Assembly (NCBI GenBank): GCA_963730155.1
Contig: CAVSQV010000003.1
Location: 2,938,496-3,002,495 of the forward strand
DNA length: 64,000 nt
Reading direction: 5' to 3'
From: an uncultured Acidobacteriota bacterium
GTDB taxonomy: Bacteria; Acidobacteriota; Thermoanaerobaculia; Multivoradales; JBCCEF01
Below the pieces are notes generated by a model. It was given only the letters and a program-made list of their open reading frames with translations. It ran no database searches and was not told where the DNA came from. Below, one piece after another: positions 1-46,888 of this stretch. The stretch's first letter is position 1. Each line of letters starts with the position of its first letter. Position numbers and translations under genes: made by a program.

Positions 1-275
1 GCACCGCGGATCCTGAGCGAGGTCGAGGATGTCCTTCCGTGGCACTGTCTCACGATCATTGGAGAGGCGACGAAGAAGCTGCCGGCCGAGGTGACCGAGC
101 CCCATCCCGAGATAAGTGGCGGGCGATGGCCGGGATGCGCGACCGCCTGATCCACGACTACTTCCGCGTCGACTATGAGCTGGTGTGGGACGTAATCACT
201 ACGAAGATACCGGATCTTCGAGCTCCGATTCAGGAGCTTCTCGAAGGGCCTGAGTCCCGCGGACAGCCCTCGTAG
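1..275 (+). pseudogene. HepT-like HEPN/DUF86 toxin remnant (nucleotidyltransferase substrate-binding family), 5'-truncated by the window and frameshifted
   Basis: Frame 1 from nt 1 gives ...ILSEVEDVLPWHCLTIIGEATKKLPAEVTEPHPEIS then a stop. Frame 3 (track ORF 39..275) continues WRAMAGMRDRLIHDYFRVDYELVWDVITTKIPDL, which contains the HEPN Rx4HxY motif (R-DRLI-H-D-Y). The two halves join with a 1-nt indel near nt 115-120 (gagata-ag-tggcgg). The M start of the track ORF is an artefact. Confidence 0.55.
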
Positions 276-297: not shown

Positions 298-1287
298 ATG
301 GGGGGTTCTATGCAGCATGCCGATACGTTCTTCAGCTATTCGCGTGATGATAGCGAGTTCGTCCTGAAGCTGGCCAGCGGGCTCAGAGAGCAGGGCGTCA
401 ATCTGTGGCTGGACCAGTTGGACATCGAAGCCGGCGAGCGGTGGGACTCGGCGGTCGAGAAGGCCCTGGGATCCTGCCATACCCTGATCGTCGTGCTGTC
501 GCCTAGCTCGGTCGCCTCCGTCAACGTGATGGACGAGGTTTCATACGCCTTGCAGTCGGACAAGCGAGTGGTGCCCGTGCTGAGCCGTGCCTGCGCCGTC
601 CCATTTCGTCTCCGCCGCGTCCAGCACATCGACTTCGTGGACGACTACGATCGGGGCTTCAAGCGCCTCATCCAGGCACTGTCCGGCGCTCCTGGGGACG
701 CCGCAGTCTCACCGGCGGTGGCGCCGCTGGACCGGCTGCCCGCCCGTGTCGAGCCGGCAGCCGATCGCGCTTCCGGAGGTCCTTATCGTCACCCGGGGAA
801 ACGGCTGGCCGTCGGCATCGGTGTTGTGGCGGTCCTTGCCCTGGTCTCCTTCCTGGTGTTCCAGTTCGTCCCGAGAGGAACCGTCAACACGCCGCCCGAG
901 CAGGTCGATCCGTCGGCCGGGAGCGTCGGCACCGGCGAGATACTGGCGGTGGAAACGGACCAGACGGAGTCGAAGGCCGGCCCAGTTCAGGTAGAGCTGA
1001 CGCGCGCCAACGAGACGGATCTGGCGCTGGATGTCAACTGGATCGATTTCCAAGGGGTGGAGCGCTTCTCCGGAACGATAGAGCCAGGCGACAGCCGGGT
1101 CGCGGGAACTTCCAACAGCGGGGCTCTGTTCAGGGTGAGAATCCACGACCCTCAGTGCGCCGAGTTGAATCGAGTTGAGGTCGAGGTGTTCCAACTGGTG
1201 GACGCACCGAAGCAGACCCTGAAGATCAGCCCACACATGATCACGTCGGACATGAGACAGCGAGCGAAATCCCGGCTGGGCTGCTAA
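298..1287 (+). CDS. TIR-domain protein with a single transmembrane helix and a ~130 aa C-terminal extracytoplasmic domain
   Basis: The N-terminus FFSYSRDDSEFVLKLASGLREQGVNLWLDQLDIEAGERW...TLIVVLSPSSVASVNVMDEV has the bacterial TIR (TIR_2-like) pattern, including the conserved Glu in the S-x-x-x-x-(D)E context. A hydrophobic helix LAVGIGVVAVLALVSFLVFQFV follows, then an unassigned C-terminal domain. A G-rich RBS (gaatgggggg) precedes the alternative ATG at 310. Confidence 0.75.
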   Translation: MGGSMQHADTFFSYSRDDSEFVLKLASGLREQGVNLWLDQLDIEAGERWDSAVEKALGSCHTLIVVLSPSSVASVNVMDEVSYALQSDKRVVPVLSRACAVPFRLRRVQHIDFVDDYDRGFKRLIQALSGAPGDAAVSPAVAPLDRLPARVEPAADRASGGPYRHPGKRLAVGIGVVAVLALVSFLVFQFVPRGTVNTPPEQVDPSAGSVGTGEILAVETDQTESKAGPVQVELTRANETDLALDVNWIDFQGVERFSGTIEPGDSRVAGTSNSGALFRVRIHDPQCAELNRVEVEVFQLVDAPKQTLKISPHMITSDMRQRAKSRLGC

Positions 1288-1338
1288 AACTCCGGGTGCG
1301 ATCATCGGGACAAACCGGGCCAATCAGAGCAAGTCGGA

Positions 1339-2637
1339 TCAGAGCGGCTCGAACCGGTAGCCGAGCCGCTCCTTCACCTCCTCCAACCGCTGGAGCAGGG
1401 TCGCGCGGTCGGGGGCGCCGAGGTTGACGATCCCGTAGCGGTAGCTCTTGCCGTCCTCCCACCAGTCGAAGTCGACCAGCTCCTCACCCTCCTCGCATTC
1501 GGTCCAGATGCGCGTGCCGGGATGGAGAGCCTCGGCGGCGGCTACGTCGTCGAGGTTCGGGGCGTGGACGACGCGCACCGGCTCGAAGACGCGCAGCGGC
1601 ACGCTGGCGGCGGCGGCGAACCTCCCCTCGCGCCGGGCGCGGCGCGGGGATTCGCCGGCGGCCAGGGCGAGCGCGATCTCGTAGCCGGCGACGCCGTCGA
1701 CCTTGGCGTAGAGGTCGGAGAACTGGCCGCACATCCGCGGGTTGATCTCGATGATCGCGAGCCGCCCGGTCGCCGGGTCCCGGATCATCTCGAGGTTGAA
1801 GAGCGTCGATTCGAGCCCCGAAGCGCGGATCGCCCGCGCCGCGATCGCCGCCATCTCCTCCTGCACCGCCGCCGGCAGGTCCGAGGGGTAGTCGAAGCGG
1901 ACGAAGCTTCCGGTCGCCGGGTCGGTCACCGAGTCGACCACGCCCAGGATCTCGACCTCGCCGCCGGCGACGTACCCCTCGACCGTGGCCAGCCGTCCGG
2001 TGAGGAGCTCCTCGGCGAGGAAGTAGCGGCCGCCGACCGGCGTCGGCAGGTAGCGGCCGAGCAGGCGGTCGAAGGCCTGCATGTACCGGGCGGCGAAGGT
2101 CTGCACCGCCTCGGTCGAGAGGAACTCGACCAGCTCGCCAGGCGAGTCGATCCGGCCGGCGTGGATCGAGTACGCGCCCTTGACCGGCTTGACGAAGCAC
2201 GGGTACGTGAGCGCCGCCGCGGCCGCCGCCAGGTCTCGCGAGGGAATCGGCGGCGAGGAAAACGGCGCCGAGTCGACCAGCGCGAAGCCGGGGACCGCCT
2301 CCGGCACCGCGGCGACCTGGCTCCGGCGCGACAGGTACTTGTGGGCGACGCCGAGGACCGCCTCGGGCCGCGAGCCGGGCAGGCCGAGCTCGGTGGCGAG
2401 GGCGGCGGCGACGGGGGCGCCGGGGTAGTCGCTCGAGCTGGCGACCCCGTCGATCCGGCCGCGCCACTCCGCGGCCGTCCGATCGATGAAGTCGAGGACG
2501 TCGAAGTCGTAGCTCACCGCGTCGGCGGAGGGCTCGGCGAAGAGCGGCTCGAAGCGGTCGCCCCAGCCGTGCCGGCAGGCTTCGAGCTGCCGGCGGTCCC
2601 AGCCGGTGGGAAAGACGAACAGGATTCGCTTCTTCAC
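1339..2637 (-). CDS. ATP-grasp domain protein (carboxylate-amine ligase superfamily)
   Basis: 432 aa with protein-like composition. The central and C-terminal region shows the ATP-grasp pattern (..YPCFVKPVKGAYSIHAGRIDSPGELVEF.. and ..GRLAIIEINPRMCGQFSDLY..). The gene converges on the TIR gene. Confidence 0.8.
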   Translation of the reverse strand: MKKRILFVFPTGWDRRQLEACRHGWGDRFEPLFAEPSADAVSYDFDVLDFIDRTAAEWRGRIDGVASSSDYPGAPVAAALATELGLPGSRPEAVLGVAHKYLSRRSQVAAVPEAVPGFALVDSAPFSSPPIPSRDLAAAAAALTYPCFVKPVKGAYSIHAGRIDSPGELVEFLSTEAVQTFAARYMQAFDRLLGRYLPTPVGGRYFLAEELLTGRLATVEGYVAGGEVEILGVVDSVTDPATGSFVRFDYPSDLPAAVQEEMAAIAARAIRASGLESTLFNLEMIRDPATGRLAIIEINPRMCGQFSDLYAKVDGVAGYEIALALAAGESPRRARREGRFAAAASVPLRVFEPVRVVHAPNLDDVAAAEALHPGTRIWTECEEGEELVDFDWWEDGKSYRYGIVNLGAPDRATLLQRLEEVKERLGYRFEPL

Positions 2638-3025
2638 CGGACGGGGACTATACCCGCGTGAGAACCGCCGCGGCCGGTCGTCACGCCGCTCGCACGGCTT
2701 ATGAGCTTACGGGCATAGAATCACCGGGCTCGACCTCACCGGGACTCCGGGCTCTCCGCTCGCCTCCGGGGCGAAGTCGTTGACCTCGCGTTGCTTGGCG
2801 GCGGAGATCGGCGATCGGCCGGCGCTGGCACGCGGCGTGCCGGAGGCAGTCCGATCCGATCCGGCGCACTGGTGGCGTCTCGCGACACTGGAAGTGAGGA
2901 GCAGTGCGCCCATGAATCCCTGATTCCCGGGACCCCGGGCACGGGCCATCCGGTCCGCGGGCCGTTCCGTCCCCGGACGAGCGCCGACGAGTAGACCCGA
3001 CCCACGATCCAAGGAGAAGGAAGCG

Positions 3026-4630
3026 ATGAGGATCCGACCGCTGACGCTGGCCCTGGCCGCGGCTCTCGCCTGCGGCGTCGTCTCCGGCGCCGCCGCCGAC
3101 ACCGTGACCGACTGGAACGCCGCCATCCTCGACGCCATCCGCGTCGATCGCACCAACCCGCCGCGGGCGACCCGCAACATGGCCCTGATGAACACTTCGA
3201 TCTTCGACGCGGTCAACGGCATCGCTCCCGCCTATCACCACTACCACGTCGCCCCCGCGGCGCCCGCCGGCGCCTCGCCCGAGGCGGCGGCCGCGGCCGC
3301 GGCGCACCGCGTGCTGTCGGCGGTCTACCCGGCGCAGCAAGCGGCCTTCGACGCCCAGCTCGCCGACTCGCTCGCCGCGGTGCCCGACGGCGCCGCCGAG
3401 GACGACGGCGTGGCCTGGGGCGAGCAGGTGGCCGACGCGATCCTCGCCCTGCGCGCGGACGATGGCAGCACCTCGGTGGTCGACTACCTCTCGCCCACCG
3501 GCGCCAACTGGTGGGTGCCGACGCCGCCGGCGTTCGCGCCCGCGCTGCTCCCGCAGTGGGGATCGGTCGCTCCCTGGTGCCTGTCGAAGTCGAGCCAGCT
3601 CCGCCAGGCGGCGCCGCCGCCGCTCTCGAGCTCGGAGTACGCCGCCGCCTACAACGAGGTGCGCGTCCTGGGTGACGCCGACAGCGCCGTCCGCACCGCC
3701 GACCAGTCCCAGATCGCCCTGTTCTGGAACGACGGCGCGGGCACCCACACCCCGCCCGGCCACTGGAACGAGATCACCCAGAGCCTGTCCGTGCAGGAGG
3801 GGCTGTCGCTGCTCGAGAATGCGCGCCTCTTCGCGCTCCAGGGGCTGACCGTGGCCGACGCCGCGATCGTCTCCTGGGAGAACAAGTACCACTGGAACCA
3901 CTGGCGGCCGTACACCGGGATCCTGCACTCCGACATCGACGGCAACGACCAGACCGGGCCCGATCCGGGCTGGTCGAGCTTCATCACCACGCCGCCGTTC
4001 CCGGCCTACACCTCCGGCCACAGCACCTTCAGCGGCAGCAGCAGCCGGCTCCTGGAGCTCTTCCTCGGCACCGACGACATCGCGTTCAGCGCGACCTCGG
4101 ACGGCCTGCCGGGAGTGACCCGCGCCTTCGCCAGCCTGTCGGAGGCGGCCGAGGAGGCCGGCCAGAGCCGGATCTACGGCGGCATCCACTGGCAGTACGA
4201 CAACTCCGGCGGCCTGGCCAGCGGCCGGGCGCTCGCCGAGCACGTCTTCTTCAACTTCCTGCGCCCGCTCGTCGCGCCTTCGACCTGCGCCGCCGACGGC
4301 GACACCCTCTGCCTCTCCGGCGGCCGCTTCGAGGTCGAGGCCGCGTGGCGCACCGAGGAGGGCGGCGGACCCGCGACCGCGATCGCCGACACGGACGAGT
4401 CCGGCCGGTTCTGGTTCTTCAACCCGAACAACACCGAGGTGGTGGTCAAGCTCCTCAATGGCTGCGGGCCGTTCGACCACTTCTGGGTCTTCGCCTCCGG
4501 CCTGACCGACGTCGAGGTGACGCTGACCGTCACCGACACCGAGACCGGCGCGCAGCGGATCTACTTCAACCCGCAGGGCAAGGACTTCGCGCCGGTGCTC
4601 GACACGGCGGCGTTCGCGACCTGCCCGTAG
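3026..4630 (+). CDS. Secreted PAP2/vanadium-dependent haloperoxidase-family protein with an extra C-terminal Cys-bracketed domain
   Basis: Signal peptide MRIRPLTLALAAALACGVVSGAAA. All three acid-phosphatase/vanadium-haloperoxidase signature motifs are present: KYHWNHWRP (Kx6RP), YTSGHST (PSGH) and SRIYGGIHWQYD (SRx5Hx3D). The C-terminal ~120 aa (CAADGDTLCLSGGRFEVEAAWR...FWFFNPNNTEVVVKLLNGCGPFDHFWVFASGLTDVEVTLTVTDTETGAQRIYFNPQG...FATCP) is a separate conserved-looking module. Confidence 0.8.
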   Translation: MRIRPLTLALAAALACGVVSGAAADTVTDWNAAILDAIRVDRTNPPRATRNMALMNTSIFDAVNGIAPAYHHYHVAPAAPAGASPEAAAAAAAHRVLSAVYPAQQAAFDAQLADSLAAVPDGAAEDDGVAWGEQVADAILALRADDGSTSVVDYLSPTGANWWVPTPPAFAPALLPQWGSVAPWCLSKSSQLRQAAPPPLSSSEYAAAYNEVRVLGDADSAVRTADQSQIALFWNDGAGTHTPPGHWNEITQSLSVQEGLSLLENARLFALQGLTVADAAIVSWENKYHWNHWRPYTGILHSDIDGNDQTGPDPGWSSFITTPPFPAYTSGHSTFSGSSSRLLELFLGTDDIAFSATSDGLPGVTRAFASLSEAAEEAGQSRIYGGIHWQYDNSGGLASGRALAEHVFFNFLRPLVAPSTCAADGDTLCLSGGRFEVEAAWRTEEGGGPATAIADTDESGRFWFFNPNNTEVVVKLLNGCGPFDHFWVFASGLTDVEVTLTVTDTETGAQRIYFNPQGKDFAPVLDTAAFATCP

Positions 4631-4665
4631 TCCTCGTTGCGGGGGGCTGCTCGAGCCCCCCGCCT

Positions 4666-5922
4666 TCATCCCCCGATCCGGAACAACTCGCCCGCCGCCA
4701 GGCAGTCGCAGAGGCGGCGGTACGTGCGCTCGAGGGCGCGGCGGCCGGGGTCCGTGCCGAGCGCGCCGAGGATGCGGCGGGCGAGAGTCCCCTCGGCGAG
4801 GTAGAGGTCGAGGAAGCCGCCCCAGGGCCCGGGCTCGAGCAGGCCGGCCGCGGCGGCGGTCTCGGCGAGGTGCGCCCAGACCCGGCCGGCCGGGAGCGGC
4901 GAGGTGGGGAGGCCGAGGACGGCGAGGAGCGCCGGGTCGTCGACCAGCGCGCGCTCGCCGTCGCGGATCGCCCGTTTGAGGAGCGCCGCCAGCGGCGCCG
5001 TCGGCAGCGCCTGGAGCTCGGCGAGCAGCGCGAAGCGCTCGGCGTCGAGCAGCCGGAGCGCCGCCACCGCCAGCGCCGCCACCGAGAGGTCGGCGCCCGG
5101 CCCTTCCTGCGTGTCGATCACCCGGATCTCGATCGAGCCGCGGCCGAAGCGGGCGATCGCGCCGCGCGAGTTGAGGAACTCGTCGCGCAGGACCCCCTCG
5201 GGGTCGTGGGGCGCGATCTCGGCGAACATCGGCTGGAAGATCACCCGGTCGTAGTCGGCCCGGGTGAAGACCGGCTCGGGGATCACCTCGCCGGCCACCG
5301 ACGGCACCCGGCCGGCGTTGCCCCGGTAGGCCTCCATGCGGCTGTCGAGGAGGCCGGTGACCCGTCCTTCGACCACCGGCGAGGAGGCCGCGAGCGCCGG
5401 CAGGAGCGGCAGCACGGCGCGGATCGCCGCGTGGAGGCGGCCGAACTCGGCGTCGCCGTCGAACGGGAGGTTTAGATGCAGGCTCTGGAGGTTCGACCAG
5501 CCGTGCCCCTGGCAGCCGAAGATGCGGTCGAACGCCTCGTAGATCGCGCTGTTCTCGTGCGGCCAGAGCCGGGTCTCGCGCTCCGGGTCCATCCACGGGT
5601 GCATCGCGGTCGGCATCAGCCGGCCGCCCATCGGTCCGAGGATGCCGAGGATCCGCTCCACGCTCTCCTGGAAGCGCCCGGGGAGCGGCGCCAGCGCCGG
5701 CGCCGGGCCGGTGGTCTTGAGCTCGACGACGTGGAGCACCAGCTCGTTCGACCACGAGATGCCGCCGACGTCGATCTCCGACTCGTAGGAGCCGGCGACC
5801 GCCTTGATCAGCTCGTCGGTCGCCGGCAGCACGTCGAGGGTCGCGGCGTCGACCAGCATGAATTCGATCTCGACCCCGACCGCCTCCCACAGGCGCCAGC
5901 GGCGCGGGGCGGGCTCGCTCAC
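4666..5922 (-). CDS. Glutamate-cysteine ligase family 2 (GCS2/YbdK-like) carboxylate-amine ligase
   Basis: 418 aa. The N-terminus WRLWEAVGVEIEFMLVD and the overall length and pattern match GCS2-type ligases. It lies 14 nt downstream of the RimK-like gene on the same strand. Confidence 0.8.
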   Translation of the reverse strand: MSEPAPRRWRLWEAVGVEIEFMLVDAATLDVLPATDELIKAVAGSYESEIDVGGISWSNELVLHVVELKTTGPAPALAPLPGRFQESVERILGILGPMGGRLMPTAMHPWMDPERETRLWPHENSAIYEAFDRIFGCQGHGWSNLQSLHLNLPFDGDAEFGRLHAAIRAVLPLLPALAASSPVVEGRVTGLLDSRMEAYRGNAGRVPSVAGEVIPEPVFTRADYDRVIFQPMFAEIAPHDPEGVLRDEFLNSRGAIARFGRGSIEIRVIDTQEGPGADLSVAALAVAALRLLDAERFALLAELQALPTAPLAALLKRAIRDGERALVDDPALLAVLGLPTSPLPAGRVWAHLAETAAAAGLLEPGPWGGFLDLYLAEGTLARRILGALGTDPGRRALERTYRRLCDCLAAGELFRIGG

Positions 5923-5935
5923 CGCTTTGCCTTTC

Positions 5936-7414
5936 TCACCGCTGCGGCTCCGGCGCCTTGCGCTTCTCGACGCGCTCCATGAACACCTCCATCACCCGCC
6001 GGTAGAGCGCGTCGCCGACCACCTCGTCCTCGAAGCCGCCGTCGACGTTGGGGTTGTCGTTGACCTCGATCACCCAGCAGTCGTCGCCGCGCTGCTTCAA
6101 GTCGACGCCGTAGAAGCCGTCGCCCATCAGGCGCGCCGCGGCGGTGGCACGCTCGATCACCTTCGGCGGCACCTGGTCGATCGCGAAGCCGCGCACGATG
6201 CCGTAGTCGGCGACCTTCCCTTCGGCGTCGCGCTGGATGATCTGCCAGTGCCCCTCGGCCATGTGGTACTGGGCGGCGAAGAGCGGCTGGCCGGCGATCA
6301 CGCCGACCCGCCAGTCGAAGTCGGTGGGCAGGAACTCCTGGGCGATCAGGAGCTCGGAGTCCTCGAGGAAGGCGCGGCCGACCTCGAGCATCTGGGCCGG
6401 GCCGTCGATGCGCTTGACCCCTTTCGAGAAGTAGCTGTCCGGCTGCTTCAAGATGCACGGATAGCCGGTCTCGCGCGCCACCGCCTCGAGGCTCTCGGCG
6501 TCGAGGATCCGGGTCGCCGGCATCGGGATGCGCGCCCGCGCCAGCGCCTCGGCGAGGAACACCTTGTTCGAGCAGCGGAGAATCGACTCGGGATCGTCGA
6601 TCACCACCAGCCCCTCGGCGGTGGCGCGGCGGGCGAAGCGGTAGGTCGGATGGTCGACCGCGGTGGTCCAGCGGATGAACAGGGCGTCGAACTCGGCCAG
6701 CCGGCCGTAGTCCTCGGGGCCGATCAGCTCGGGGCGGAAGCCGACGTGGTGGGCGGCGCGCAGGAAGCGCCGGATCGCCTTCTTGTTCGACGGCGGTTCG
6801 GTCTCGGCGGGATCGACCAGGATCGCGAGGTCGAAGCGGCCGGCGGCGACCCGGTTGGCCGCCGGGTAGCGGCGGGCGAAGTGCTGGCGCGCCGACTCGA
6901 TCACGAAGTCGCGGTGGCTGGGCGGGATCTCGCGGGCGGCGATCGGGCGCAGGCTCTCGAGCCGCCAGGCGCCCTCGTCGTCGTGCCCGAACGCCGCGCG
7001 CAGCATCGGCGCCGGGAAGTGGTTGAAGAGCTTGGTCGCCAGCCGCTGGTGGCGGTGCGCCAGGTTGCGGCCGAAGTAGACCGAGAGGGTGAACTCCTCG
7101 GCGGCGATCGGGGCGAGGCTGCGCTGGATCTCGGCCTCGAGGTCGTCCGAGATCAGGTTCAACCGGGTACGGTGACGCAGGTCCTGGATCGTCGTCACGC
7201 TCGGCACCGGCCGGTGGCCGCGCGCCTGGGCGAGGAGCGAGACGTAGTAGCCGAGGCTCTGATAGCGGTAGCGCCGGCAGAGGTTGAAGACCTTGACGCC
7301 GCGGCCGACCGAGTATTCCGGATCGGTCAGGTAGCGCCGTGCCGGCACCACCGAGACGCCGGGCACGTCCAGCGGCCAGTCCTCGGGCTTTTCGACCACG
7401 AACAGGATGGGCAT
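5936..7414 (-). CDS. RimK-family ATP-grasp ligase with an N-terminal RLAN-like domain
   Basis: 492 aa. The C-terminal half has the RimK-type ATP-grasp pattern (..GYPCILKQPDSYFSKGVKRI..LIAQEFLPTDFDWRVGVIAG..CWVIEVNDNPNVD..). The N-terminal ~230 aa resembles the RimK-like ATP-grasp N-terminal domain that is found with GCS2 partners. Confidence 0.8.
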   Translation of the reverse strand: MPILFVVEKPEDWPLDVPGVSVVPARRYLTDPEYSVGRGVKVFNLCRRYRYQSLGYYVSLLAQARGHRPVPSVTTIQDLRHRTRLNLISDDLEAEIQRSLAPIAAEEFTLSVYFGRNLAHRHQRLATKLFNHFPAPMLRAAFGHDDEGAWRLESLRPIAAREIPPSHRDFVIESARQHFARRYPAANRVAAGRFDLAILVDPAETEPPSNKKAIRRFLRAAHHVGFRPELIGPEDYGRLAEFDALFIRWTTAVDHPTYRFARRATAEGLVVIDDPESILRCSNKVFLAEALARARIPMPATRILDAESLEAVARETGYPCILKQPDSYFSKGVKRIDGPAQMLEVGRAFLEDSELLIAQEFLPTDFDWRVGVIAGQPLFAAQYHMAEGHWQIIQRDAEGKVADYGIVRGFAIDQVPPKVIERATAAARLMGDGFYGVDLKQRGDDCWVIEVNDNPNVDGGFEDEVVGDALYRRVMEVFMERVEKRKAPEPQR

Positions 7415-7565
7415 GGTTCCCTGGCCTTTCGGCTTCCATCAATTGCCGGCATCGTAGCTCAGCACACCCCCGGGATCGCAGGGCCAAGTGGAAACCTCGG
7501 CGGCTCCACCCGGTGAACCTTTCGGCCTAGCGAAGTGTCTAAGCAATAAACAGGGGGGTGCGATC

Positions 7566-8264
7566 ATGACCTGCAGCAAGTACGCGTTTCTCGTTCCGGT
7601 GTTCGGGGCCGCGCTCGCCGCGGCCTTCACCGCTCCGGCCGCGGCCGACGGCGACTGGCGGCTCGAGCTCTCCGGCGTCTACACCGAGGCGACCTCCGGG
7701 GGCGCCCCCGACGGCTCGTTCGGCGGCGGCCTGGCGGTCGGGTACCGGCTCACGCCGCGCCTCGGCATCGAGTTGGGCGCGTTGACCGCCGAGCTCTCGG
7801 ACGAGACGCGCGTCGACTTCTTCGACGTCTTCGAGGTGACCGTCGAGACCTCGCTCGGCTACACCCCGGTCCTCGCCCGCCTCGACTTCCACCTGACGCC
7901 CGACCGCCGCGCCGACGTCTACGTAGGACCGGTGGCCGGGTACGTCTTCTTTGACGACCTCACCCTGCGCACCTCGATCGAGTTCCCGGGCCTGCCGGGG
8001 CCGGGGCCGGTGCCGGTGACCGAGATCCGGCTCCGCGCCGACGACCAGTTCACCTGGGGCGCCCACGCCGGCGTCGACGTCCGCGTCGGCTCCGCCGGCA
8101 GCCGCGCGTTCATGAGCGCCGGCCTCACCTACCTCGACCTGCCGGTCGAGGTCGAGGTGCCGGCGGGCGGCGAGATCGAGGGCGGCGGCGAGATCGACTT
8201 CGACGCGGAGCGCGGCGACCTCGACCCGCTGATCCTCCACCTCGGCTTCGGCGTCCGCTTCTAG
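7566..8264 (+). CDS. Outer-membrane beta-barrel protein (OmpW/OmpA-like)
   Basis: RBS caggggggtgcgatc then ATG. The signal peptide is MTCSKYAFLVPVFGAALAAAFTAPAAA. Alternating amphipathic strands end in ...LHLGFGVRF with a C-terminal Phe. The track ORF starts earlier at 7488 but has no RBS there. Confidence 0.6.
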   Translation: MTCSKYAFLVPVFGAALAAAFTAPAAADGDWRLELSGVYTEATSGGAPDGSFGGGLAVGYRLTPRLGIELGALTAELSDETRVDFFDVFEVTVETSLGYTPVLARLDFHLTPDRRADVYVGPVAGYVFFDDLTLRTSIEFPGLPGPGPVPVTEIRLRADDQFTWGAHAGVDVRVGSAGSRAFMSAGLTYLDLPVEVEVPAGGEIEGGGEIDFDAERGDLDPLILHLGFGVRF

Positions 8265-8767: not shown

Positions 8768-11221
8768 TCAGCGCTGGAACGAGAACCGCGTGCCGACGAA
8801 GGCCGACAGCGGCGAGCCTGGATACAGCGCCTGGGCACCCGGGGCGGCCACGTTGAACACGTTGACGGCGGCGATGTACTCCTCGTCGAACAGGTTGCGC
8901 ACCTCTCCGAACAGCTCCCACTGCCGGGCAGCGAAGCCGCCGCGCAGGCCCATCAGGGCGTAGCCGTCGACGGTGTAGGTGTTGGCGAAGTCCGCGTAGC
9001 GCTCGCCGAGGAAGTCGAAGGTCGGGCCGGCGTAGAAGCCCGTCCGATGCCGGTAGAGCGCCTCGCCGCGCACGACATAGTCGGGCGCTGCGGGGAGGTC
9101 GTTGTCACCGTAGACCGGATCGCCGTCGAAGTGGAACCGGTTGAGCGTAACGCTGACCTGCGGGTCGAGGCGATGCCCGCCGCCGCCGAGCTCGAAGCTC
9201 GCGGCCACCAGCGCCTCGATGCCGGCGTGAACGGTCTCGTCGATGTTGGTCGTCAGACTGTTCCCCGGCGCGTTCGGATCGTCCAGCGACAGGATCTCGT
9301 CGCTGATGCTCGCGTAGTACGCGCTGATGTCCCACGTCCAGCTCGTTCCGGCCGCTCGCCGCGACGTGGAACGCCAGCCGACCTCCGCCACGGTGCCGCT
9401 CATCGGATCGAGGGTGGCGTTGCCGCCGCGCACGTTGTCCTCCATCTGGAACGTGGTCGGCGCCTCGAACAGGCGGCTGAGGTTGCCGTACAGCTCCCCG
9501 GCATCGTTCAGCGCGGCGATCACGCCCACGCGCGGATTGACGGAGGAGTAGTCGGCCTTGGGGTTGCTCACCGCCCCGGTGTCCGCGTTGATCGTGCGCA
9601 CGTCGCGCGCCGCATCGACGTACTGGGCGCCGAGGACGACCGAGACGCGGTCGGAGGCGCGCCAGCGGTCGACGAAGAACGCCTCCACGCTGTCGGCGCT
9701 GTTGTCGACGAACTCGGAGATCCCGTTCGGCCGTCCCCCGTCGTTGCGGAAGTTCCCGCCCTCGACCGACCCCTCGCCGTAGTTGAGACCGACCTGGAGG
9801 TCGTGCGCACCCACGGTCTGGTCGTAGCGGACCACGGCGCCGAGATCGGCGTGATCGGTGTCGACCAGGAGGCTGAACACCTCCACCGGCGGGGCCGGTC
9901 CGGGCCCGTCGAAGTCGACCAGGATCCGGTCGACGATCGGGTGGAACAGCGACTGCTCCTCGTACGACAGTCCGGCCGTGAACGACCGGTCGCCGTCGAG
10001 GGTCCAGATCGCCTTGGCCGCCAAGCGCGCGGTCTCGACCTCCTTCCCATAGTCGCCGCCGAGCGCGGCTGCGCTCGCCTGATCCGGGTCGGCGTCCGCC
10101 TGGGCGCGCGTCAGCGCACCCGGCAGCGCCAGCGCGTTGTCGATGTACGTCGCGTAGGCGCGGACGCTCACCGAGTCCGAAGGCTGCCAGCCGGCGTTGG
10201 CGTACACGCTCCAGCGGTCCTGGTCGCTGTGATCGCGATAGCCGTCCCATTGCTTGGTTTCCGCCGTCAGGATCCCGTCCAGCGAGTCGCCGGCCGCGCC
10301 GACCGTGGCGCGGCCGTCCAGTGCGCCGTAGCTGCCGCCGCTCAGGGAGGCGGCGACCGGGGCGCTGTTGCGCGCCGTGGGCGACACGAGATCGATGGCG
10401 CCGCCCAGCGTGCTCGCGCCGTAGGTGAGCGCGTTGGCGCCCCGCGCCACGCTGGCGTAGCGCGCGCTCAAGGGATCGGACACGCGATTGTGGCCGTTGC
10501 CGTCGGCGGTCGTGACCGGCAATCCGTCCTGGAGCAGCTTGATGCCGTTCTTGTCGTAGGCCACGGAATCGAGGTTGGAGCCGCGGCTCGAGAAGAACAG
10601 CTCGTCGCCGCCGTAGGCGCTCTCGGACCACATGCCGGGCACGTAGCGCAGCATGTCCGGCAGCCCGGCGACGTGCTGGGTCTGGAGATCCTCGATGTCC
10701 ACGACCGTGACGCCGCCCGGCGTCGCCGCGCGCTGCTCCTCGACCTCGGCCCGCGCCAGGTCCTCGGTCACGGTGATGCTCTCCCTGAGCGGCTCGACGA
10801 CCAGCCGGAAATCGGCCACCGCCGATCCCGTCGAGGCGACGCTCACTCGTCGTTCCATCGCCTGGAAGCCCGGAGCCGTGACCCGGAGCGTGTACTCGCC
10901 CGGCTCGAGTCCCTCGAACCGATAGCGGCCTCGGCCGTCGGTGGCGGCGGAACGGGTGGCGGCGACGCCGCTCACGAGCTCCACCGTGGCTCCGGGGACG
11001 GAAGCACCCGTCGGGTCCGAGACCTGTCCGGTGACGGCGGCCGTCGCGCGCTCGGGGACCGGGGTCGCCGGGGCGGGCGGACTTGCATAGAGCGGGGCCG
11101 CGGCCAGCGCCGCGGCCAGGGCGAACGGCACGAGCGCCCGGAGGGCGCTCGGGGTCGATACGGTTCGCTGCGGGGCCGGCCGCTTCCGGGCCGGCCGGCG
11201 GTTCGTGATCAGGCAGGTCAT
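8768..11221 (-). CDS. TonB-dependent receptor with an N-terminal carboxypeptidase-regulatory-like domain
   Basis: 817 aa. It has a signal peptide and a CarbD-reg-like segment (VTGQVSDPTGASVPGATVELVSGVAATRSAATDGRGRYRFEGLEPGEYTLRVTAPGFQ). A plug and 22-strand barrel-type sequence follows, ending FVGTRFSFQR. Confidence 0.85.
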   Translation of the reverse strand: MTCLITNRRPARKRPAPQRTVSTPSALRALVPFALAAALAAAPLYASPPAPATPVPERATAAVTGQVSDPTGASVPGATVELVSGVAATRSAATDGRGRYRFEGLEPGEYTLRVTAPGFQAMERRVSVASTGSAVADFRLVVEPLRESITVTEDLARAEVEEQRAATPGGVTVVDIEDLQTQHVAGLPDMLRYVPGMWSESAYGGDELFFSSRGSNLDSVAYDKNGIKLLQDGLPVTTADGNGHNRVSDPLSARYASVARGANALTYGASTLGGAIDLVSPTARNSAPVAASLSGGSYGALDGRATVGAAGDSLDGILTAETKQWDGYRDHSDQDRWSVYANAGWQPSDSVSVRAYATYIDNALALPGALTRAQADADPDQASAAALGGDYGKEVETARLAAKAIWTLDGDRSFTAGLSYEEQSLFHPIVDRILVDFDGPGPAPPVEVFSLLVDTDHADLGAVVRYDQTVGAHDLQVGLNYGEGSVEGGNFRNDGGRPNGISEFVDNSADSVEAFFVDRWRASDRVSVVLGAQYVDAARDVRTINADTGAVSNPKADYSSVNPRVGVIAALNDAGELYGNLSRLFEAPTTFQMEDNVRGGNATLDPMSGTVAEVGWRSTSRRAAGTSWTWDISAYYASISDEILSLDDPNAPGNSLTTNIDETVHAGIEALVAASFELGGGGHRLDPQVSVTLNRFHFDGDPVYGDNDLPAAPDYVVRGEALYRHRTGFYAGPTFDFLGERYADFANTYTVDGYALMGLRGGFAARQWELFGEVRNLFDEEYIAAVNVFNVAAPGAQALYPGSPLSAFVGTRFSFQR

Positions 11222-36629: not shown

Positions 36630-36896
36630 ATGAAAGAAGCAGTCCTGACCTACCCTGACGGCCTTCCTCAGTCCCTCAAGCTCTCGGACCGGGAGTTCGC
36701 CGAGGAGCTGCGCTTCCTCGCAGCGGCCAAGCTCTTCGAGCTGGGCCGGCTGTCTTCGGGTAAGGCCGCCGAGCTCGCGGATCTCGATCGGCTCACCTTC
36801 CTGGGCCGCCTGGCTTCGATCGGCGTCGCGGCGATCAACCTGCGAGAGGAAGAGGTGACCGCCGAGCTGGACATGGCCCGCGGTCTGGCTGGATGA
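36630..36896 (+). CDS. UPF0175-family antitoxin
   Basis: 88 aa. The sequence MKEAVLTYPDGLPQSLKLSDREFAEELRFLAAAKLFELGRLSSGKAAELADLDRLTFLGRLASIGVAA matches the UPF0175 pattern (..EEF..E.R.L.A.KLYE.G.LS.G.AAELAG..R.EFL..L...GV...). RBS gagagggg. Its stop overlaps the next gene's start (ATGA). Confidence 0.8.
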   Translation: MKEAVLTYPDGLPQSLKLSDREFAEELRFLAAAKLFELGRLSSGKAAELADLDRLTFLGRLASIGVAAINLREEEVTAELDMARGLAG

Positions 36897-37387
36897 GCCC
36901 GTGGATCGTCGACGCCGGACCCTTCGTCTTCCTCGCGAAGCTTGACCGTCTGTCCGTCCTGAGAGGACCCGCTCCATCGGTCCTGATGCCGGCGGCAGCG
37001 GCCCGCGAGGTCCTGGCGCACCCGGATCGCGCGACACAGGCGCTCCAGCGTGCGTCGAGCGACTGGCTGGAGATCGTCGAGGTCGAAGATCGCCTCGCCG
37101 CCGGCCTCCTCCTCCCCTCCCTTGGACCCGGCGAAGCCGAGGTGATCGCCCTGGCGAGGGAACGATCTGCGACGACCGTGGTCCTGGACGACCTCGATGC
37201 CCGGCGATTCGCCCGCCGGGTCGGCCTTCGACCGGTCGGCACGCTCGGCCTGCTGCTCGCCGCCCGCTTGCGCAACGAGCTGCCGTCGCTCCGCGCCGAG
37301 ATCCTCCGACTGGAGGAGGCGGGGTTCTACGCCAGCGACGCGCTGACCGCTGCCGTTCTGGAGGCGGCCGGCGAAGCGCCGCCGTGA
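36893..37387 (+). CDS. DUF3368-family PIN-like nuclease (toxin partner of UPF0175)
   Basis: 164 aa. The sequence MSPWIVDAGPFVFLAKLDRLSVL...GPGEAEVIALARERSATTVVLDDLDARRFARRVGLRPVGTLGLLLAA has the DUF3368 pattern (VVDTSPLI.LA.IGRLDLL ... GEAEAIALA.E...DLLLIDD..AR..A...GL...GTLG.L). Confidence 0.75.
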   Translation: MSPWIVDAGPFVFLAKLDRLSVLRGPAPSVLMPAAAAREVLAHPDRATQALQRASSDWLEIVEVEDRLAAGLLLPSLGPGEAEVIALARERSATTVVLDDLDARRFARRVGLRPVGTLGLLLAARLRNELPSLRAEILRLEEAGFYASDALTAAVLEAAGEAPP

Positions 37388-40725: not shown

Positions 40726-43074
40726 TCACAGCTCCTTTCGCCGCAGCCGCAGCGCGTTGGCGATCACCGACACCGACGAGAAGCTCATCGCCGCGGCGGC
40801 GAGCATCGGGGAGAGGAGCCAGCCGGTCCAGGGGTAGAGGAGGCCGGCGGCGATCGGGATGCCGAGGGTGTTGTAACCGAACGCCCAGAGCAGGTTCTGG
40901 CGGATGTTGGCGAGGGTGGCGCGCGACAGGCGGCGGGCGGTGACGATGCCGCGGAGGTCGCCACGGACCAGGGTCACCGCCGCGCTCTCCATGGCGACGT
41001 CGGTGCCGGTGCCCATGGCGATGCCGACTTGCGCCCGGGCCAGCGCCGGGGCGTCGTTGATGCCGTCGCCGGCCATCGCGACGAAGCGGCCCTCGGCCTG
41101 GAGGCGCTCGATCTCGGCCAGCTTCTCCTCGGGGCGGACCTCGGCGAGGAAGCGGCCAATGCCCAGCTCGCGCGCCACCGCCTCGGCGGTCGGCCGGGCG
41201 TCGCCGGTGAGCATGACGATCTCGACCCCCTCCTCGCGCAGCGCGGCGATCGCGGCCGGGGTCGACTCCTTGATCCGGTCGGCGACGGCGAGGAGGCCGG
41301 CGGCGCGGCCGTCGATCGCCAGCATCACCACCGTGCGGCCGGCCTGGCCTAGCTCGGCAGCGGCGGCCGCGAGCGGTGACGGGTCGATCCCGGACCCCTC
41401 GAGCAGCCGGCGGTTGCCGAGCGCGGCGGCCCGCCCTTCGACCTCGCCGCGCACCCCCTGGCCGGTGACCGACTCGAAGCCTTGGGTCTTCGGCGTCTCG
41501 ACGCCGCGCTCCGCGGCGCCGGCCAGGATCGCGGCCGCCAGCGGGTGCTCGCTGCCGCGCTCGAGCGCCGCGGCGACGCGCAGCACCTCGTCCTCGGTGA
41601 AGCCGGGGGCGGCGCGCACCGCGACCAGGCGCGGCTTGCCCTCGGTCAGGGTGCCGGTCTTGTCGACCACCAGGGTGTCGACCCGGCTCAAGGTCTGGAT
41701 CGCCTCGGCGTCGCGGAAGAGGACTCCGTGCTCGGCGCCGCGGCCGGTGGCGACCATCACCGACATCGGCGTCGCCAGGCCGAGCGCGCACGGGCAGGCG
41801 ATGATCAGGACCGCGACGGCGTTGACCAGCGCGTGGGCGAGCCGCGGCTCGGGGCCGAGGATCGCCCAGGCGGCGAAGGTGATCGCCGCCACCGCCAGCA
41901 CCGCGAGCACGAACCAGCCCGAGATGACGTCGACCAGGCGCTGGATCGGCGCCCGGCTGCGCTGCGCCTTCGCCACCAGCTCGACGATCCGCGCCAGCAG
42001 CGTCTCCGAGCCGACCCGTTCGGCGCGCACGACCAGCGAGCCGGTGCCGTTGACGGTGGCGCCGACGACGGCGTCGCCCGGGCCCTTTTCGGCCGGCATC
42101 GGTTCGCCGGTGATCATCGACTCGTCGACCGCGCTCGCGCCCTCGACCACCGTGCCGTCGACCGGCACCTTCTCGCCCGGGCGGACGCGGAGCAGATCGC
42201 CGGGCGCGATCTCGGCGAGCGGCACGTCCTCCTCGCGGCCGTCGTCGCCGATCCGCCGCGCCGTCGCCGGCGCCAGGCCGAGGAGGCGCCGGATCGCCGC
42301 TCCGGTCTCGCCGCGCGCCTTGAGCTCGAGCACCTGGCCGAGGAGCACCAGGGCGGTGATCACCGCCGCGGCCTCGAAGTAGACCGGCACGCGGCCGCCG
42401 TGGCCGCGGAAGGCGGGCGGGAAGATCCCGGGCGCGATCACCGCCGCCAGGCTGAAGCCGTAGGCGACGCCGACGCCCAGGCCGATCAGCGTGAACATGT
42501 TGAGACTGCGGTTTTTGACCGACGCGACCGCGCGGACGTAGAACGGCCACGCCGCCCAGGTCGCGACCGGCGTCGCGAAGAGGAGCTGGAGCAGCACCTG
42601 GACGCGCGGCGAGAGGAGGCGCCCGATCGGGTCGCCCGGGATCATCTCGCCCATCGCCAGCGCCAGGGTCGCGAGCGCCAGCGGCACCGAGATCCGGAAG
42701 CGCCGCAGCATGTCGAGGTACTCGGGGTTCGGACCCTCCTCGGCGGTCACCGTCCGCGGCTCGAGCGCCATGCCGCAGATCGGGCAGCTCCCGGGCCGGT
42801 CGCGCACCACCTGCGGGTGCATCGGGCAGGTCCACTCGGTCTTGATGGCGGCGGCGGCCGGGGTCGCCGGCTCGAGCGCCATGCCGCACTTCGGGCAGGC
42901 GCCGGAGCCGGCGGCCTCGACCTCGGGGTGCATCGGGCAGGTCCAGACGGCGCCCGGGGGCGCCTCGGCCGGGAGTGCCTCGGCCGCCCCGGCGCAGCAG
43001 TCGTGTCCGGCCGGCGCAACGGGCTCGGCGCCCGCGTCGTGGCAGCAGGCGTGCTCGTGCTTCGGCTCGGGCAT
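40726..43074 (-). CDS. copA: Copper-translocating P1B-type ATPase with duplicated N-terminal heavy-metal-binding domains
   Basis: Start [13 protein letters not shown]. Two CPMHPE...CPxCGM(A)LEP metal-binding repeats are followed by a TM domain with the CPC motif ([13 protein letters not shown]), the DKTGT phosphorylation site ([11 protein letters not shown]), [10 protein letters not shown] and [10 protein letters not shown]. Everything upstream of this start in the 1295-aa track ORF is antisense artefact. Confidence 0.85.
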
Positions 43075-45106: not shown

Positions 45107-45541
45107 TCACCGGCGCTCCGGCCAGTAGAGGGCGATCTCCCGCTCGGTCGGGATCGCGAGCGCGATCGGCCCCAGATCCCGGCGCTCCTCGGCGAGCCGC
45201 AGCTCGTCCAGGACGTCGACCATCGCGCCGTAGGGCGCGGCGGGCCGGGCATGGACGATCACCGGCTTCTCGGGCGCGGCAGCGAGGATGGGCGCGAGAT
45301 GTCCGACCAGCTCGCCGAGCGGCATGCCGCGGCCGTCGACGGAGAGCCCGCCGTCGGCGCCCACCTCCACGAACACCGATTCGAGCGGCTCGACCTCGCC
45401 CTCGATCTCGTCGGAGAACCGGAGATCGAGCCCGGCGGTCGTCGCGAAGGTCGCGGCGACCATGAAGAAGACCAGGAGCAGAAAGGCGACGTCCGACATC
45501 GAAGCGGTGGGGATGTCGATCGGGACTCGGAGTCTCGTCAT
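45107..45541 (-). CDS. ExbD/TolR-family biopolymer transport protein (no ExbB or TonB adjacent)
   Basis: RBS ggaggg then ATG (MTRLRVPIDIPTASMSDVAFLLLVFFMVAATF.. is the characteristic ExbD N-terminus and TM). The periplasmic domain is ...LSVDGRGMPLGELVGHL...PVIVHARPAAPYGAMVDVLDEL. Confidence 0.75.
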   Translation of the reverse strand: MTRLRVPIDIPTASMSDVAFLLLVFFMVAATFATTAGLDLRFSDEIEGEVEPLESVFVEVGADGGLSVDGRGMPLGELVGHLAPILAAAPEKPVIVHARPAAPYGAMVDVLDELRLAEERRDLGPIALAIPTEREIALYWPERR

Positions 45542-45609
45542 GGGGCCCTCCGTGGTTGGTCCTACCCGTTCGGACCCGCGGCGGGCCGTTCGAGTTCCGA
45601 GCGTGAGCC

Positions 45610-45638
45610 TTGACGGATCATCCTCGACCACCTACGAT
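45610..45638 (+). promoter_or_regulatory. Sigma70-like promoter candidate (TTGACG-N17-TACGAT) with flanking GATCATCC direct repeats
   Basis: TTGACG gatcatcctcgaccacc TACGAT lies in the 197-bp divergent intergenic region, ~100 bp upstream of the DUF433 gene. GATCATCC occurs twice about 31 bp apart and ACGATCA occurs twice. These repeats are a possible operator for autoregulation. Confidence 0.3.
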
Positions 45639-45738
45639 CACAGACGATCATCCCGGGGCCATTTGTCGGACGCCGGGGATCGCTCCGGAAAGCCGGCCCA
45701 ATCGCCACGCACCGTTTCCAGCGACCGGGAGCATGTAA

Positions 45739-46431
45739 GTGAACCGGCAGACTGTAAGGGCAACCGTCCTCGATTCGCCCCGCTATCGTCTGGCGGAGGC
45801 GGCCGGGTACATCCCGGGGCTGTCCGTTGCTACGTTGCGGAGCTGGGTTCTGGGTCGGACCTATCCGGTGCAGGGTGGAGAGGCCGTGTTCAAGCGGCTG
45901 ATCCAACTGCCCGCCAGCCTTGATCAGCGGCTTTCCTTCACGAACCTGATCGAGGCGCATGTGCTGTATGGCCTTCGCGTCAACCGCGGGATTTCGATTC
46001 GGGACCTGCGCACCGCCATCGACTATGCCGAGAAGGAGTTCGGCATCTCGCACCTGCTGGCCCACAAAGAGCTGCTGGTCCTCCCCGGGAATCTCTTCAT
46101 CGAGCGCTACGGTCAGCTCGTCAACCTCGGCAAGGCCGGCCAGCTAGGCATGAGAAAGGTCATCGAGGCCTACCTGGAGCGGGTACAGCACGACGATCTG
46201 GGCTTCGCCCGGAGCTTCTTCCCCATCGTTCCATGGGCTCCGGGAAGCCGTGACTACCTCATCGATCCCGAGGTGGCGTTCGGAAAGCCTATAGTCGTGA
46301 AACATGGGGTTCGGGTGGCCACCGTTGCCGATCGCTATGAGGGCGGGGAAGATCTAGAGACCCTGGCGCGCGACTATGGGCTCCAGACAGAAGAGATCGA
46401 AGCGGCGATCACGTACGCGCGAGCGGCCTGA
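45739..46431 (+). CDS. DUF433-domain protein (antitoxin-like) with an N-terminal extension
   Basis: 230 aa. The C-terminus ...RDYLIDPEVAFGKPIVVKHGVRVATVADRYEGGEDLETLARDYGLQTEEIEAAITYARAA matches the DUF433 pattern (G.P.I.GTRI.V..V...ag.S.eeIa.dYp.Lt.edI.aAL.YA). Confidence 0.65.
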   Translation: MNRQTVRATVLDSPRYRLAEAAGYIPGLSVATLRSWVLGRTYPVQGGEAVFKRLIQLPASLDQRLSFTNLIEAHVLYGLRVNRGISIRDLRTAIDYAEKEFGISHLLAHKELLVLPGNLFIERYGQLVNLGKAGQLGMRKVIEAYLERVQHDDLGFARSFFPIVPWAPGSRDYLIDPEVAFGKPIVVKHGVRVATVADRYEGGEDLETLARDYGLQTEEIEAAITYARAA

Positions 46432-46888
46432 TCCCGTCTTCTTCGCAGACCGCAATCTGGACTCTCCGTCTTTCGTCGAGCCCCTGCTGGGCGCCGGCAT
46501 TCGTGTCGAGCGTTTCTTCGCTCACTTCACGAAGGACGACACGCCGGATCAGGAGTGGGCTCGCCTGTGCGCTGGCAACGGCTGGCTCGCTCTTACCGGT
46601 GACAAGGACATCGCCTCGATTCCCGAGGAGATCGACGCCGTGATGATTCACGGCGCCTGTCTCTTCATTCTGACCTTCGGTCACGGCACGAATCACCCGC
46701 TTCTTGCCGAGAACCTGATTCGAACGGCTGGCCGAGTGCTGCGCTTTCATCGCCACAACCCGGCACCATTCATCGCCAAGGTGAACCGGCCGAACGCCAG
46801 GGACTGGGAGGCGGGTAAGCCGGGAACCGTTCGCATGTTCAGAAGCTACGAGAGCTGGACCGCCCGCCGGCGCTCTCACCCGAGGTAG
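46376..46888 (+). CDS. DUF5615/Mut7-C-like PIN-fold protein (toxin partner of DUF433)
   Basis: The protein-like core is VFFADRNLDSPSFVEPLLGAGIRVERF...GWLALTGDKDIASIPEEIDAVMIHGACLFIL. The only in-frame start is an ATG 56 nt inside the upstream gene, so the N-terminus MGSRQKRSKRRSRTRE is uncertain. Confidence 0.55.
   Translation: MGSRQKRSKRRSRTRERPDPVFFADRNLDSPSFVEPLLGAGIRVERFFAHFTKDDTPDQEWARLCAGNGWLALTGDKDIASIPEEIDAVMIHGACLFILTFGHGTNHPLLAENLIRTAGRVLRFHRHNPAPFIAKVNRPNARDWEAGKPGTVRMFRSYESWTARRRSHPR

Follow-up and report, generated by a model that had tools for sequence, protein, structure and literature searches.

A single-pass TIR protein with a periplasmic VHL beta-like domain points to a clade of TIR-transmembrane modules with interchangeable ectodomains

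Near the left edge of a 64,000-nucleotide stretch of DNA from an uncultured Acidobacteriota bacterium (assembly GCA_963730155.1, contig CAVSQV010000003.1, positions 2,938,496 to 3,002,495; hereafter the window) lies a gene whose product joins an N-terminal TIR domain, through one transmembrane (TM) helix, to a domain on the far side of the membrane. What could a TIR enzyme do when it is tied to something outside the cytoplasm, and is such a protein a peculiarity of this locus? The initial annotation, made from the DNA letters alone, had seen in it an unusual membrane-spanning relative of defence TIR proteins, with a sensor-like ectodomain of unknown family, in a small defence or signalling islet. 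We find that the TIR-TM portion belongs to a widespread clade in which a highly conserved TIR-TM module is combined with many different ectodomains, and that the ectodomain here is, by profile comparison and predicted fold, a divergent relative of the VHL beta domain. Residue numbers throughout refer to the 329-amino-acid (aa) frame that begins at the ATG at position 298.

The assignment of the N-terminal part as TIR is borne out by the TIR_2 profile PF13676, which matches it from end to end (profile positions 2-122 of 122) at 100.1 bits, where the cut-off is 28; a further match is to PF01582 (E 7.9e-09), and PADLOC models for short pAgo TIR, SAVED-TIR and bSEFIR match over the TIR part only. 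A profile built from 14 TIR domains of the clade was searched against solved structures, and matched Hydra TRR-2 (1.5e-11), Cat1 (1.3e-09), the SPARTA TIR-APAZ protein (about 3e-09), AbTIR (1.7e-07) and SARM1 (about 6e-05). The nearest solved TIR is that of Hydra Toll-receptor-related 2 (4w8g/4w8h), which ranks above all bacterial NAD+-cleaving (NADase) TIRs and has the 'C.(I/V)P' motif region in common with the clade.

The glutamate that had been singled out as a retained catalytic residue, Glu80 in the 'MDEV' motif ('NVMDEV'), aligns without gaps to a Glu of SPARTA TIR-APAZ at chain position 77 by count, which we take to be the Glu77 whose mutation abolishes NADase activity. It also aligns to the Glu of the 'WCWDEL' motif of Cat1; the Hydra TRR-2 TIR has no such Glu in the profile alignment. 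In a MAFFT alignment of the best matches, Glu80 is invariant in 124 of 124 clade TIR domains, which bears out the earlier assignment, and about 30 further positions are invariant or nearly so. The motifs WLDQLDI and C.IPFRLRR.Q.IDF are extremely conserved across phyla. We predict from these alignments that the TIR domain can cleave NAD+.

The protein has one strongly hydrophobic stretch, LAVGIGVVAVLALVSFLVFQFV, in agreement with the single TM helix proposed at the outset. Within the 15 residues that flank it there are four lysine or arginine residues on the TIR side versus one on the far side, and the same bias runs through 132 single-TM relatives, with means of 3.6 on the TIR side and 1.9 on the far side; the count is higher on the TIR side in 97 of them and lower in 15. 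The TIR fold starts at residue 11, so there is no N-terminal signal peptide. Two homologues present the C-terminal domain in other ways: P0127 (145 aa) consists of a signal peptide followed by the same domain alone, and P0123 (234 aa) has the same domain behind an N-terminal membrane anchor and a helical region. Moreover, Cys287 and Cys329 are invariant in all five subfamily members, a pair that would fit an extracytoplasmic disulfide. The charge bias, the homologue with only a signal peptide and the conserved cysteine pair together place the C-terminal domain outside the cytoplasm, as had been supposed, and because the host is diderm (see below), outside here means the periplasm. An N-in/C-out topology, with the TIR domain predicted in the cytoplasm and the C-terminal domain in the periplasm, is thus well supported. 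The stalk that follows the helix is longer and richer in proline in the orthologue P0003, and predicted local distance difference test (pLDDT) values are low at the start of the model.

The region beyond the helix is 138 aa long, close to the 130 or so first estimated; the description of it as a domain of unknown family does not stand. Pfam gives no match to this region alone, the PF01847 (VHL) model does not match the domain or any of the five subfamily members at E <= 10, searches of PDB and Pfam with three- and five-member subfamily profiles return no VHL match, and human pVHL is not detected from the domain without bridging sequences. The bridge is provided by large bacterial proteins. With the 138-aa region as query, an exhaustive phmmer search of 1.8 billion representatives found 39 matches at E <= 0.001; setting aside its orthologue cluster, P0123 and P0127, many of them are large proteins that match the domain at several places. 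PF01847 is present in 13 of the 18 matches scanned against Pfam, and matches to proteins with 2-10 PF01847 repeats reach E 2.7e-32; P0121 carries ten copies (E 1e-105) and P0122 nine. An iterated local search found the same domain in the TIR-TM proteins P0013, P0017, P0018, P0030 and P0038, and in P0013 Pfam itself calls VHL (E 3.6e-12). A first match to pVHL in the PDB was not counted as independent, since the profile used included P0013.

Direct comparison of the five-member subfamily with 21 canonical bacterial VHL repeats by hhalign gave a probability of 99.1% (E 1.6e-18) over 103 columns. An AlphaFold (AF2) model of the domain from a 46-sequence alignment (pLDDT 95, predicted TM-score 0.87) has seven strands and a short C-terminal helix, and the top 50 Foldseek matches to it in the PDB are all pVHL chains (E from 2e-06, probability 1.00, TM-score 0.61-0.67). 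Since canonical VHL repeats were part of the alignment behind the model, the fold match and the sequence link are not independent evidence; a single-sequence AlphaFold model of the whole protein (pLDDT 38.7) was unusable. On these profile and model comparisons we assign the domain as a divergent VHL beta-domain homologue that forms a new branch of the family.

The subfamily and the pVHL beta domain have the N..W..G..PG core motifs in common. Relative to the canonical repeats, the subfamily has a six-residue DPQC insert, a C-terminal helix that ends in Cys and an altered 'H.W' motif, which reads 'A.F'. The hydroxyproline pocket of pVHL, as we understand the pVHL-HIF structures, is formed by W88, S111, H115 and W117; by alignment the first Trp is kept, the Ser is replaced by Thr, the His by Ala and the second Trp by Phe ('TSNSGALF' against 'HSYRGHLW'). 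Canonical bacterial VHL repeats (P0121-P0158) keep the pocket residues W, T/S, H and W, and occur in up to 10-12 tandem copies in proteins of about 2000 aa. Elsewhere, VHL beta domains are found on secreted enzymes and toxins: an astacin with discoidin, PI-PLC, a thiol-activated cytolysin, a glyoxal oxidase with a legume lectin, CAP and PD40/DPPIV proteins. Their place as accessories on such proteins suggests a targeting or binding module. The one statement on prokaryotic VHL beta domains that our literature search found, from 2020, gives their function as unknown (PMC7736814).

The idea that a membrane-spanning TIR is unusual had to be given up. Most of the 120 best matches to the TIR domain have one hydrophobic helix after it, at about residue 150-210, followed by varied domains that include PASTA, FGE-sulfatase, ricin, jacalin, BON, SPOR, PA14, TonB_C, DUF1566/Lcl_C, PKD, MVL and VHL. 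With each species represented by one genome, a scan turned up 325 loci that encode a TIR of the clade type, mainly in Acidobacteriota and Bacteroidota, with some in Proteobacteria, Ignavibacteria and Calditrichota and in a few archaeal metagenome-assembled genomes (MAGs). Among 72 loci that were parsed, 54 encode a single TM helix followed by a sizeable C-terminal region; in these, Lcl_C is the most frequent Pfam family (12 of 54), followed by FGE-sulfatase, Fib_succ_major, TonB_C, BON, SPOR, PASTA, WG repeats and others, and YfiO also occurs among the ectodomains of the sister architectures.

Across phyla the TIR module remains 55-65% identical, and the outside domain is freely swapped. The same contrast is seen at short range. 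Identity to the two orthologues of the window protein is 94% and 78% over the TIR domain, against 82% and 59% over the ectodomain, and in the fragment P0148 a TM helix and stalk 61% identical to those of the window protein lead into a ricin-type lectin. The stronger conservation of the TIR domain and the exchanged ectodomain of P0148 suggest sensor-like evolution. At 12 loci a clade gene has one or two further clade genes nearby, mostly in tandem, and in the five loci examined adjacent paralogues mostly have TIR domains 74-84% identical and ectodomains that are 19-43% identical or unalignable. We regard the picture of a clade built from a highly conserved TIR-TM module and interchangeable, putatively binding, extracytoplasmic domains as well supported by these comparisons. 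Our literature search, in which paper coverage was incomplete, found no description of a TIR-TM-variable-ectodomain clade or of a TIR-VHL fusion.

The open reading frame (ORF) of 329 aa is present in the window as described (298-1287, forward strand), and although long spurious ORFs are frequent at 73% GC (guanine plus cytosine), its strong Pfam match and conserved orthologues mark it as a true gene. The database protein P0001 is 100% identical, 325 aa long and starts at the second Met, as do the full-length orthologues P0002 (83% identity) and P0003 (58%). Because all three begin there, translation probably starts at the ATG at position 310; the in-frame ATG at 298 is also possible and would give the 329-aa form, of which an exact-sequence lookup found no record. 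A scan for promoters and terminators found nothing useful. Coordinates of the gene, its parts and other features of the window are collected in Table 1. The TonB-dependent receptors, the outer-membrane beta-barrel protein and ExbD encoded in the window are diderm markers, and the best named relatives of its CopA P-type ATPase are in Thermoanaerobaculia/Acidobacteriota MAGs. The window's own genes thus mark the host as diderm and acidobacterial, probably a member of the Thermoanaerobaculia.

Table 1. Features of the window discussed in the text, with their positions, strands and supporting observations.
Feature	Position	Strand	Basis or remark
TIR-TM-VHL beta-like gene, from the likely start	310..1287	+	325 aa; identical to P0001, start shared with orthologues
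Cytoplasmic TIR domain (predicted)	328..672	+	residues 11-125; PF13676 E 1.6e-28
Glu80 codon, at the catalytic-Glu position of NADase TIRs	535..537	+	alignment to SPARTA TIR-APAZ and Cat1
Ala/Pro-rich cytoplasmic linker (predicted)	673..804	+	residues 126-169; ends in basic RHPGKR
Single TM helix, predicted N-in/C-out	805..870	+	residues 170-191; Kyte-Doolittle mean 2.86
Pro/Thr-rich periplasmic stalk (predicted)	871..951	+	residues 192-218; sequence
Predicted periplasmic VHL beta-domain-like sandwich, seven strands and short C-terminal helix	952..1284	+	residues 219-329; phmmer, hhalign, AF2, Foldseek
Cys287 (in DPQC)	1156..1158	+	invariant in subfamily alignment, column C79
Cys329, C-terminal residue	1282..1284	+	second invariant Cys, column C121
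3' end of 139-aa ORF, probable MntA-HepT deletion fusion	1..150	+	frame-1 translation; Logan contig gene calls
HepT (HEPN RNase toxin) C-terminal remnant, frame 3	108..275	+	PF01934 E 6.5e-16
Amidoligase-type cluster	1339..7414
ATP-grasp gene	1339..2637	-	convergent with the TIR gene
Secreted PAP2/DUF6851 protein	3026..4630	+
GCS2 carboxylate-amine ligase	4666..5922	-
RLAN and RimK-like ATP-grasp	5936..7414	-
Outer-membrane beta-barrel protein	7488..8264	+
TonB-dependent receptor	8768..11221	-
ORF with DUF3368 (PIN-like) match	36893..37387	+	164 aa; possible toxin-antitoxin component
CopA P-type ATPase	40729..43074	-
ExbD	45107..45631	-
Second low-GC patch	~45200..47000		62-65% GC
DUF433/HTH protein	45739..46431	+	adjoins ExbD
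TonB-dependent receptor	59076..61301	+

We considered whether the surroundings of the gene speak for a role in defence. On a 6.2-kb Logan contig that covers the same locus, in an assembly that may share reads with that of the window and through whose gene calls the upstream locus is known, a 139-aa gene with PF01909/PF18765 (MntA-type nucleotidyltransferase) ends at window nucleotide 150. The 49-aa tail of this ORF that is visible in the window (LTIIGEATKKLPAEVTEPHPEI) has no Pfam match and by eye resembles the middle of HepT, and the PF01934 match that follows covers just the final third of that model (positions 77-119 of 120), with the Rx4H motif present as RDRLIH. The first HepT-like stretch (…IIGEA…HPEI) lies in frame 1 and the remnant in frame 3; the frame is broken near nucleotides 108-120, where one missing base would join the two. 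The upstream ORF is thus probably an MntA-HepT deletion fusion, and the MntA/HepT toxin-antitoxin pair looks both fused and frameshifted. An intact HepT toxin with a separate upstream MntA was rejected, given the broken frame and a nucleotidyltransferase ORF that runs into HepT-like sequence. The remnant beside the TIR gene is as first noted, and the look upstream for an MntA partner that the initial annotation had called for found the MntA-type ORF; the stretch from there to the TIR gene has no gene call, and an MFS transporter is encoded further upstream.

The TIR gene and the relic together have 64% GC, versus a window mean of 73% (standard deviation 3%, in 1-kb windows), and GC at third codon positions is 79% in the TIR gene versus 96-97% in its neighbours. 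They form a small foreign islet of low GC, which consists of the TIR gene and the decayed MntA/HepT pair only. The convergent ATP-grasp gene that had been counted with them is indeed there; it belongs to an amidoligase-type cluster of native GC that is unrelated to the TIR gene. Of the small defence or signalling islet first proposed, the foreign islet stands by its composition, and a defence islet that reaches beyond the decayed toxin-antitoxin pair does not, with an MFS transporter upstream and the amidoligase-type cluster downstream. A defence or signalling role of the TIR gene itself is plausible. No other TIR is encoded in the window. Apart from the islet, just one patch is strongly low in GC, and it may be another foreign insertion of small size; it includes a DUF433/HTH protein, a type often seen as an antitoxin.

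No partner gene is conserved across the 72 parsed clade loci. What recurs are TIR paralogues, at the 12 loci already described, and synteny specific to particular lineages: in Saprospiraceae a TrkA_N protein lies upstream of the clade gene, and in three Acidobacteriota loci an amidase_3 gene follows it. In nine Flavobacteriaceae loci (L032, L035, L039, L041, L045, L054, L064, L070 and L073; at about 2200-5900 in each), a caspase (Peptidase_C14)-DUF676-TPR-S gene and a TPR gene lie upstream of the TIR-TM gene or genes, a neighbourhood that is conflict-system-like and is absent from the window. Apart from matches to TIR and caspase models, PADLOC matches among neighbours are isolated (MkoA, a PD-T4-6-type kinase and mad6). 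Overall, the neighbours of clade genes are mostly ordinary genes and give no strong defence-island signal. The genome that encodes P0003 has, 4 kb from the orthologue (locus L001), a second TIR gene (4889-5899, minus strand) directly upstream of an nSTAND1-WD40 NTPase gene (1338-4892, minus strand); TIR with nSTAND1-WD40 NTPase is a known type of conflict system.

How might such a protein work? We suggest, as a model to which we give an even chance, that it is a one-component transmembrane sensor-effector in which binding in the periplasm leads to TIR clustering and NAD+ cleavage. It would be a bitopic inner-membrane protein, with its TIR domain in the cytoplasm and a flexible Pro-rich stalk that carries the VHL-like sandwich into the periplasm, where the sandwich could bind a peptide, a glycan, or a component of the envelope or of an invader. 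Binding or clustering of this kind would bring the cytoplasmic TIR domains together, and the clustered domains would then cleave NAD+, with NAD+ depletion or production of a signal nucleotide and, as the outcome, growth arrest or abortive infection. We favour ligand-driven clustering because TIR active sites form only in oligomers: the NADase sites assemble across subunits, and oligomerisation switches on SARM1, TIR-STING, SPARTA and Thoeris. NADase activity, clustering-driven activation and a role in defence or conflict are each predicted rather than observed for this protein.

Compared with the NAD+-cleaving TIRs of bacteria (SPARTA TIR-APAZ, Cat1, AbTir and ThsB-type proteins), the window protein is alike in its TIR_2-type domain and in the Glu at the catalytic position, and differs in other respects: they are soluble proteins under the control of a partner in the cytoplasm or of a nucleotide signal, whereas this one spans the membrane, has a domain placed in the periplasm and no adjacent partner, and carries Asn instead of the Trp four residues before the Glu. 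We considered and rejected membership of known systems. Thoeris ThsB is not matched above threshold (PF08937 16.3 bits, below the cut-off of 21.2; PADLOC ThsB models E >= 0.0014), and no ThsA (SIR2/SLOG or Macro-TM) lies next to the gene, its neighbours being the MFS transporter, the MntA/HepT relic and the ATP-grasp gene. For a CBASS or Pycsar effector there is no cyclase in the visible neighbourhood, and the match to the SAVED-TIR model covers TIR residues 8-86 only.

Other proteins resemble it in layout. Animal Toll-like receptors (TLRs) and Hydra Toll-receptor-related proteins likewise join a binding domain outside the cytoplasm, one TM helix and a TIR domain inside it. TLRs, however, have N-terminal leucine-rich repeats (LRRs), a type I TM helix and a C-terminal TIR domain, whereas the window protein is reversed (type II, with the TIR domain N-terminal), has no LRR, and keeps a catalytic-type Glu that Hydra TRR-2 is without. 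The likeness is one of layout, an analogy and not membership; the architecture is probably convergent, and we claim no descent. The ectodomain shares its fold with pVHL but is without the alpha domain or the Elongin-binding part, and is predicted to be periplasmic, not cytosolic. An accessory protein of type X retrons, which combines an IHF-like domain, a TM helix and a VHL beta domain, is likewise a bacterial single-pass membrane protein with a VHL beta domain in a defence-associated context (PMC7736814); there the VHL domain is predicted to be cytoplasmic and is coupled to a DNA-binding domain and a retron, whereas the window protein has a TIR domain, a VHL-like domain placed in the periplasm and no retron nearby. 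Finally, Aravind and colleagues have described lectin-fold sensors (NPCBM, FGS) as fusion partners of TIR effectors in conflict systems that NTPases regulate (PMC8195603), and a study of diversity-generating retroelements considers periplasmic sensor domains (PMC10907252). Such predicted systems of multicellular bacteria have in common with the clade the idea of coupling TIR effectors to binding or 'antigen-sensor' domains that vary (PMC8195603, PMC10907252), and FGE-sulfatase-type ectodomains also occur in the TIR-TM clade. The TIR-lectin conflict systems are mostly cytoplasmic and NTPase-regulated (STAND, MoxR-vWA); the window protein differs as a stand-alone TM protein with a VHL-like sensor and no NTPase.

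Several observations weigh against reading these proteins as immune sensors that cleave NAD+. PASTA, SPOR, TonB_C and BON, all found as ectodomains in the clade, bind the cell's own envelope, so that envelope monitoring or anchoring fits as well as invader sensing. A plasmid search returned 27 TIR-only matches and no close relatives (28-35% identity among the 15 matches listed), and a phage search found no clade relatives. In the visible neighbourhood no partner gene (ThsA-like, cyclase or STAND NTPase) adjoins the window gene, and among 118 immediate neighbours of clade genes PADLOC models for TIR matched 8 and for caspase 5, as raw counts without a background rate. In Cat1, and also in AbTir and SARM1, a Trp precedes the catalytic Glu by four residues, where the clade has an invariant Asn, so that NADase competence is not guaranteed; nor can the ligand be read from pVHL, because the His of the hydroxyproline pocket is replaced by Ala. 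Our literature search found no enzymatic or genetic study of any clade member. The immune reading draws support from the conflict-type neighbours in Flavobacteriaceae, the foreign composition of the window gene, the tandem paralogues with divergent ectodomains and the diversity of the ectodomains. In Escherichia coli, 12 of 32 tested TIR systems defend against phage, and one of nine new TIR systems there contains a TM domain (PMC11350192).

The self-binding ectodomains, YfiO among them, raise the possibility, which we consider rather unlikely, that the clade monitors or anchors to the state of the envelope and has no part in immunity. The ectodomain would then tether the protein to peptidoglycan, the outer membrane or a periplasmic protein, and the TIR domain would serve the cell's physiology, for example in entry into dormancy or in NAD/nucleotide signalling linked to growth of the wall, much as in PASTA-domain kinases. 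The amidase_3 genes of the three Acidobacteriota loci, the lack of a universal defence partner among mostly ordinary neighbours, and the chromosomal location of the clade, with no members in phages and no close ones on plasmids, would all suit such a role. It sits less well with the rapid swapping of ectodomains, lectins included (ricin, jacalin, MVL, Lcl_C, FGE-sulfatase), which, like the tandem paralogues, looks like diversification of a repertoire, or with the caspase/TPR-S neighbours in Flavobacteriaceae and a window gene of foreign composition beside a toxin-antitoxin relic. Between the envelope and the immune reading the present data cannot decide. It is improbable, in our view, that the TIR domain is a non-catalytic scaffold for protein-protein interaction, comparable to that of animal TLR signalling, which brings a cytoplasmic partner encoded elsewhere to the membrane. 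The best structural match, without the Glu and non-catalytic in appearance, and the Asn in place of the Cat1 Trp point that way, and the conserved surface motifs could mark a partner interface; an invariant Glu, however, is hard to explain without catalysis, the 72 loci hold no conserved partner gene, and active-site residues were needed in all 12 of the defending E. coli systems (PMC11350192). That the gene is a functionless relic, carried along and decaying in an islet gained by horizontal transfer, as the MntA/HepT pair beside it is, is very improbable. It does adjoin a frameshifted or fused module, is foreign in composition and has very few orthologues among 15 billion proteins, but its ORF is unbroken and keeps both subfamily cysteines and every clade-invariant TIR residue, and the orthologues, with the TIR domain more conserved than the ectodomain, are patterned as under purifying selection.

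The gene is unremarkable alone; it points to a large and coherent class of proteins, apparently unstudied, that is widespread in Acidobacteriota and Bacteroidota. We propose, tentatively and with doubt, that the clade, with its several hundred relatives, is a bacterial counterpart of TLRs: inner-membrane pattern-recognition receptors with swappable binding domains and a TIR NADase activated by clustering. In bacteria, TIR immunity as now known detects infection from inside the cell, and we know of no demonstration in bacteria that such one-protein receptors sense phage or attack from the outside in. If the proposal is right, the ectodomains (VHL-like, lectins, PASTA and others), in the periplasm or at the surface, would detect molecules of invaders or of damage before or during envelope crossing, and these proteins would be one-protein outside-in immune sensors. 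Bacterial VHL beta-like domains gain a concrete context as a candidate periplasmic ligand-binding module, and a TIR-TM unit with swappable periplasmic domains would couple TIR enzymes to extracytoplasmic events, as in the logic of TLRs.

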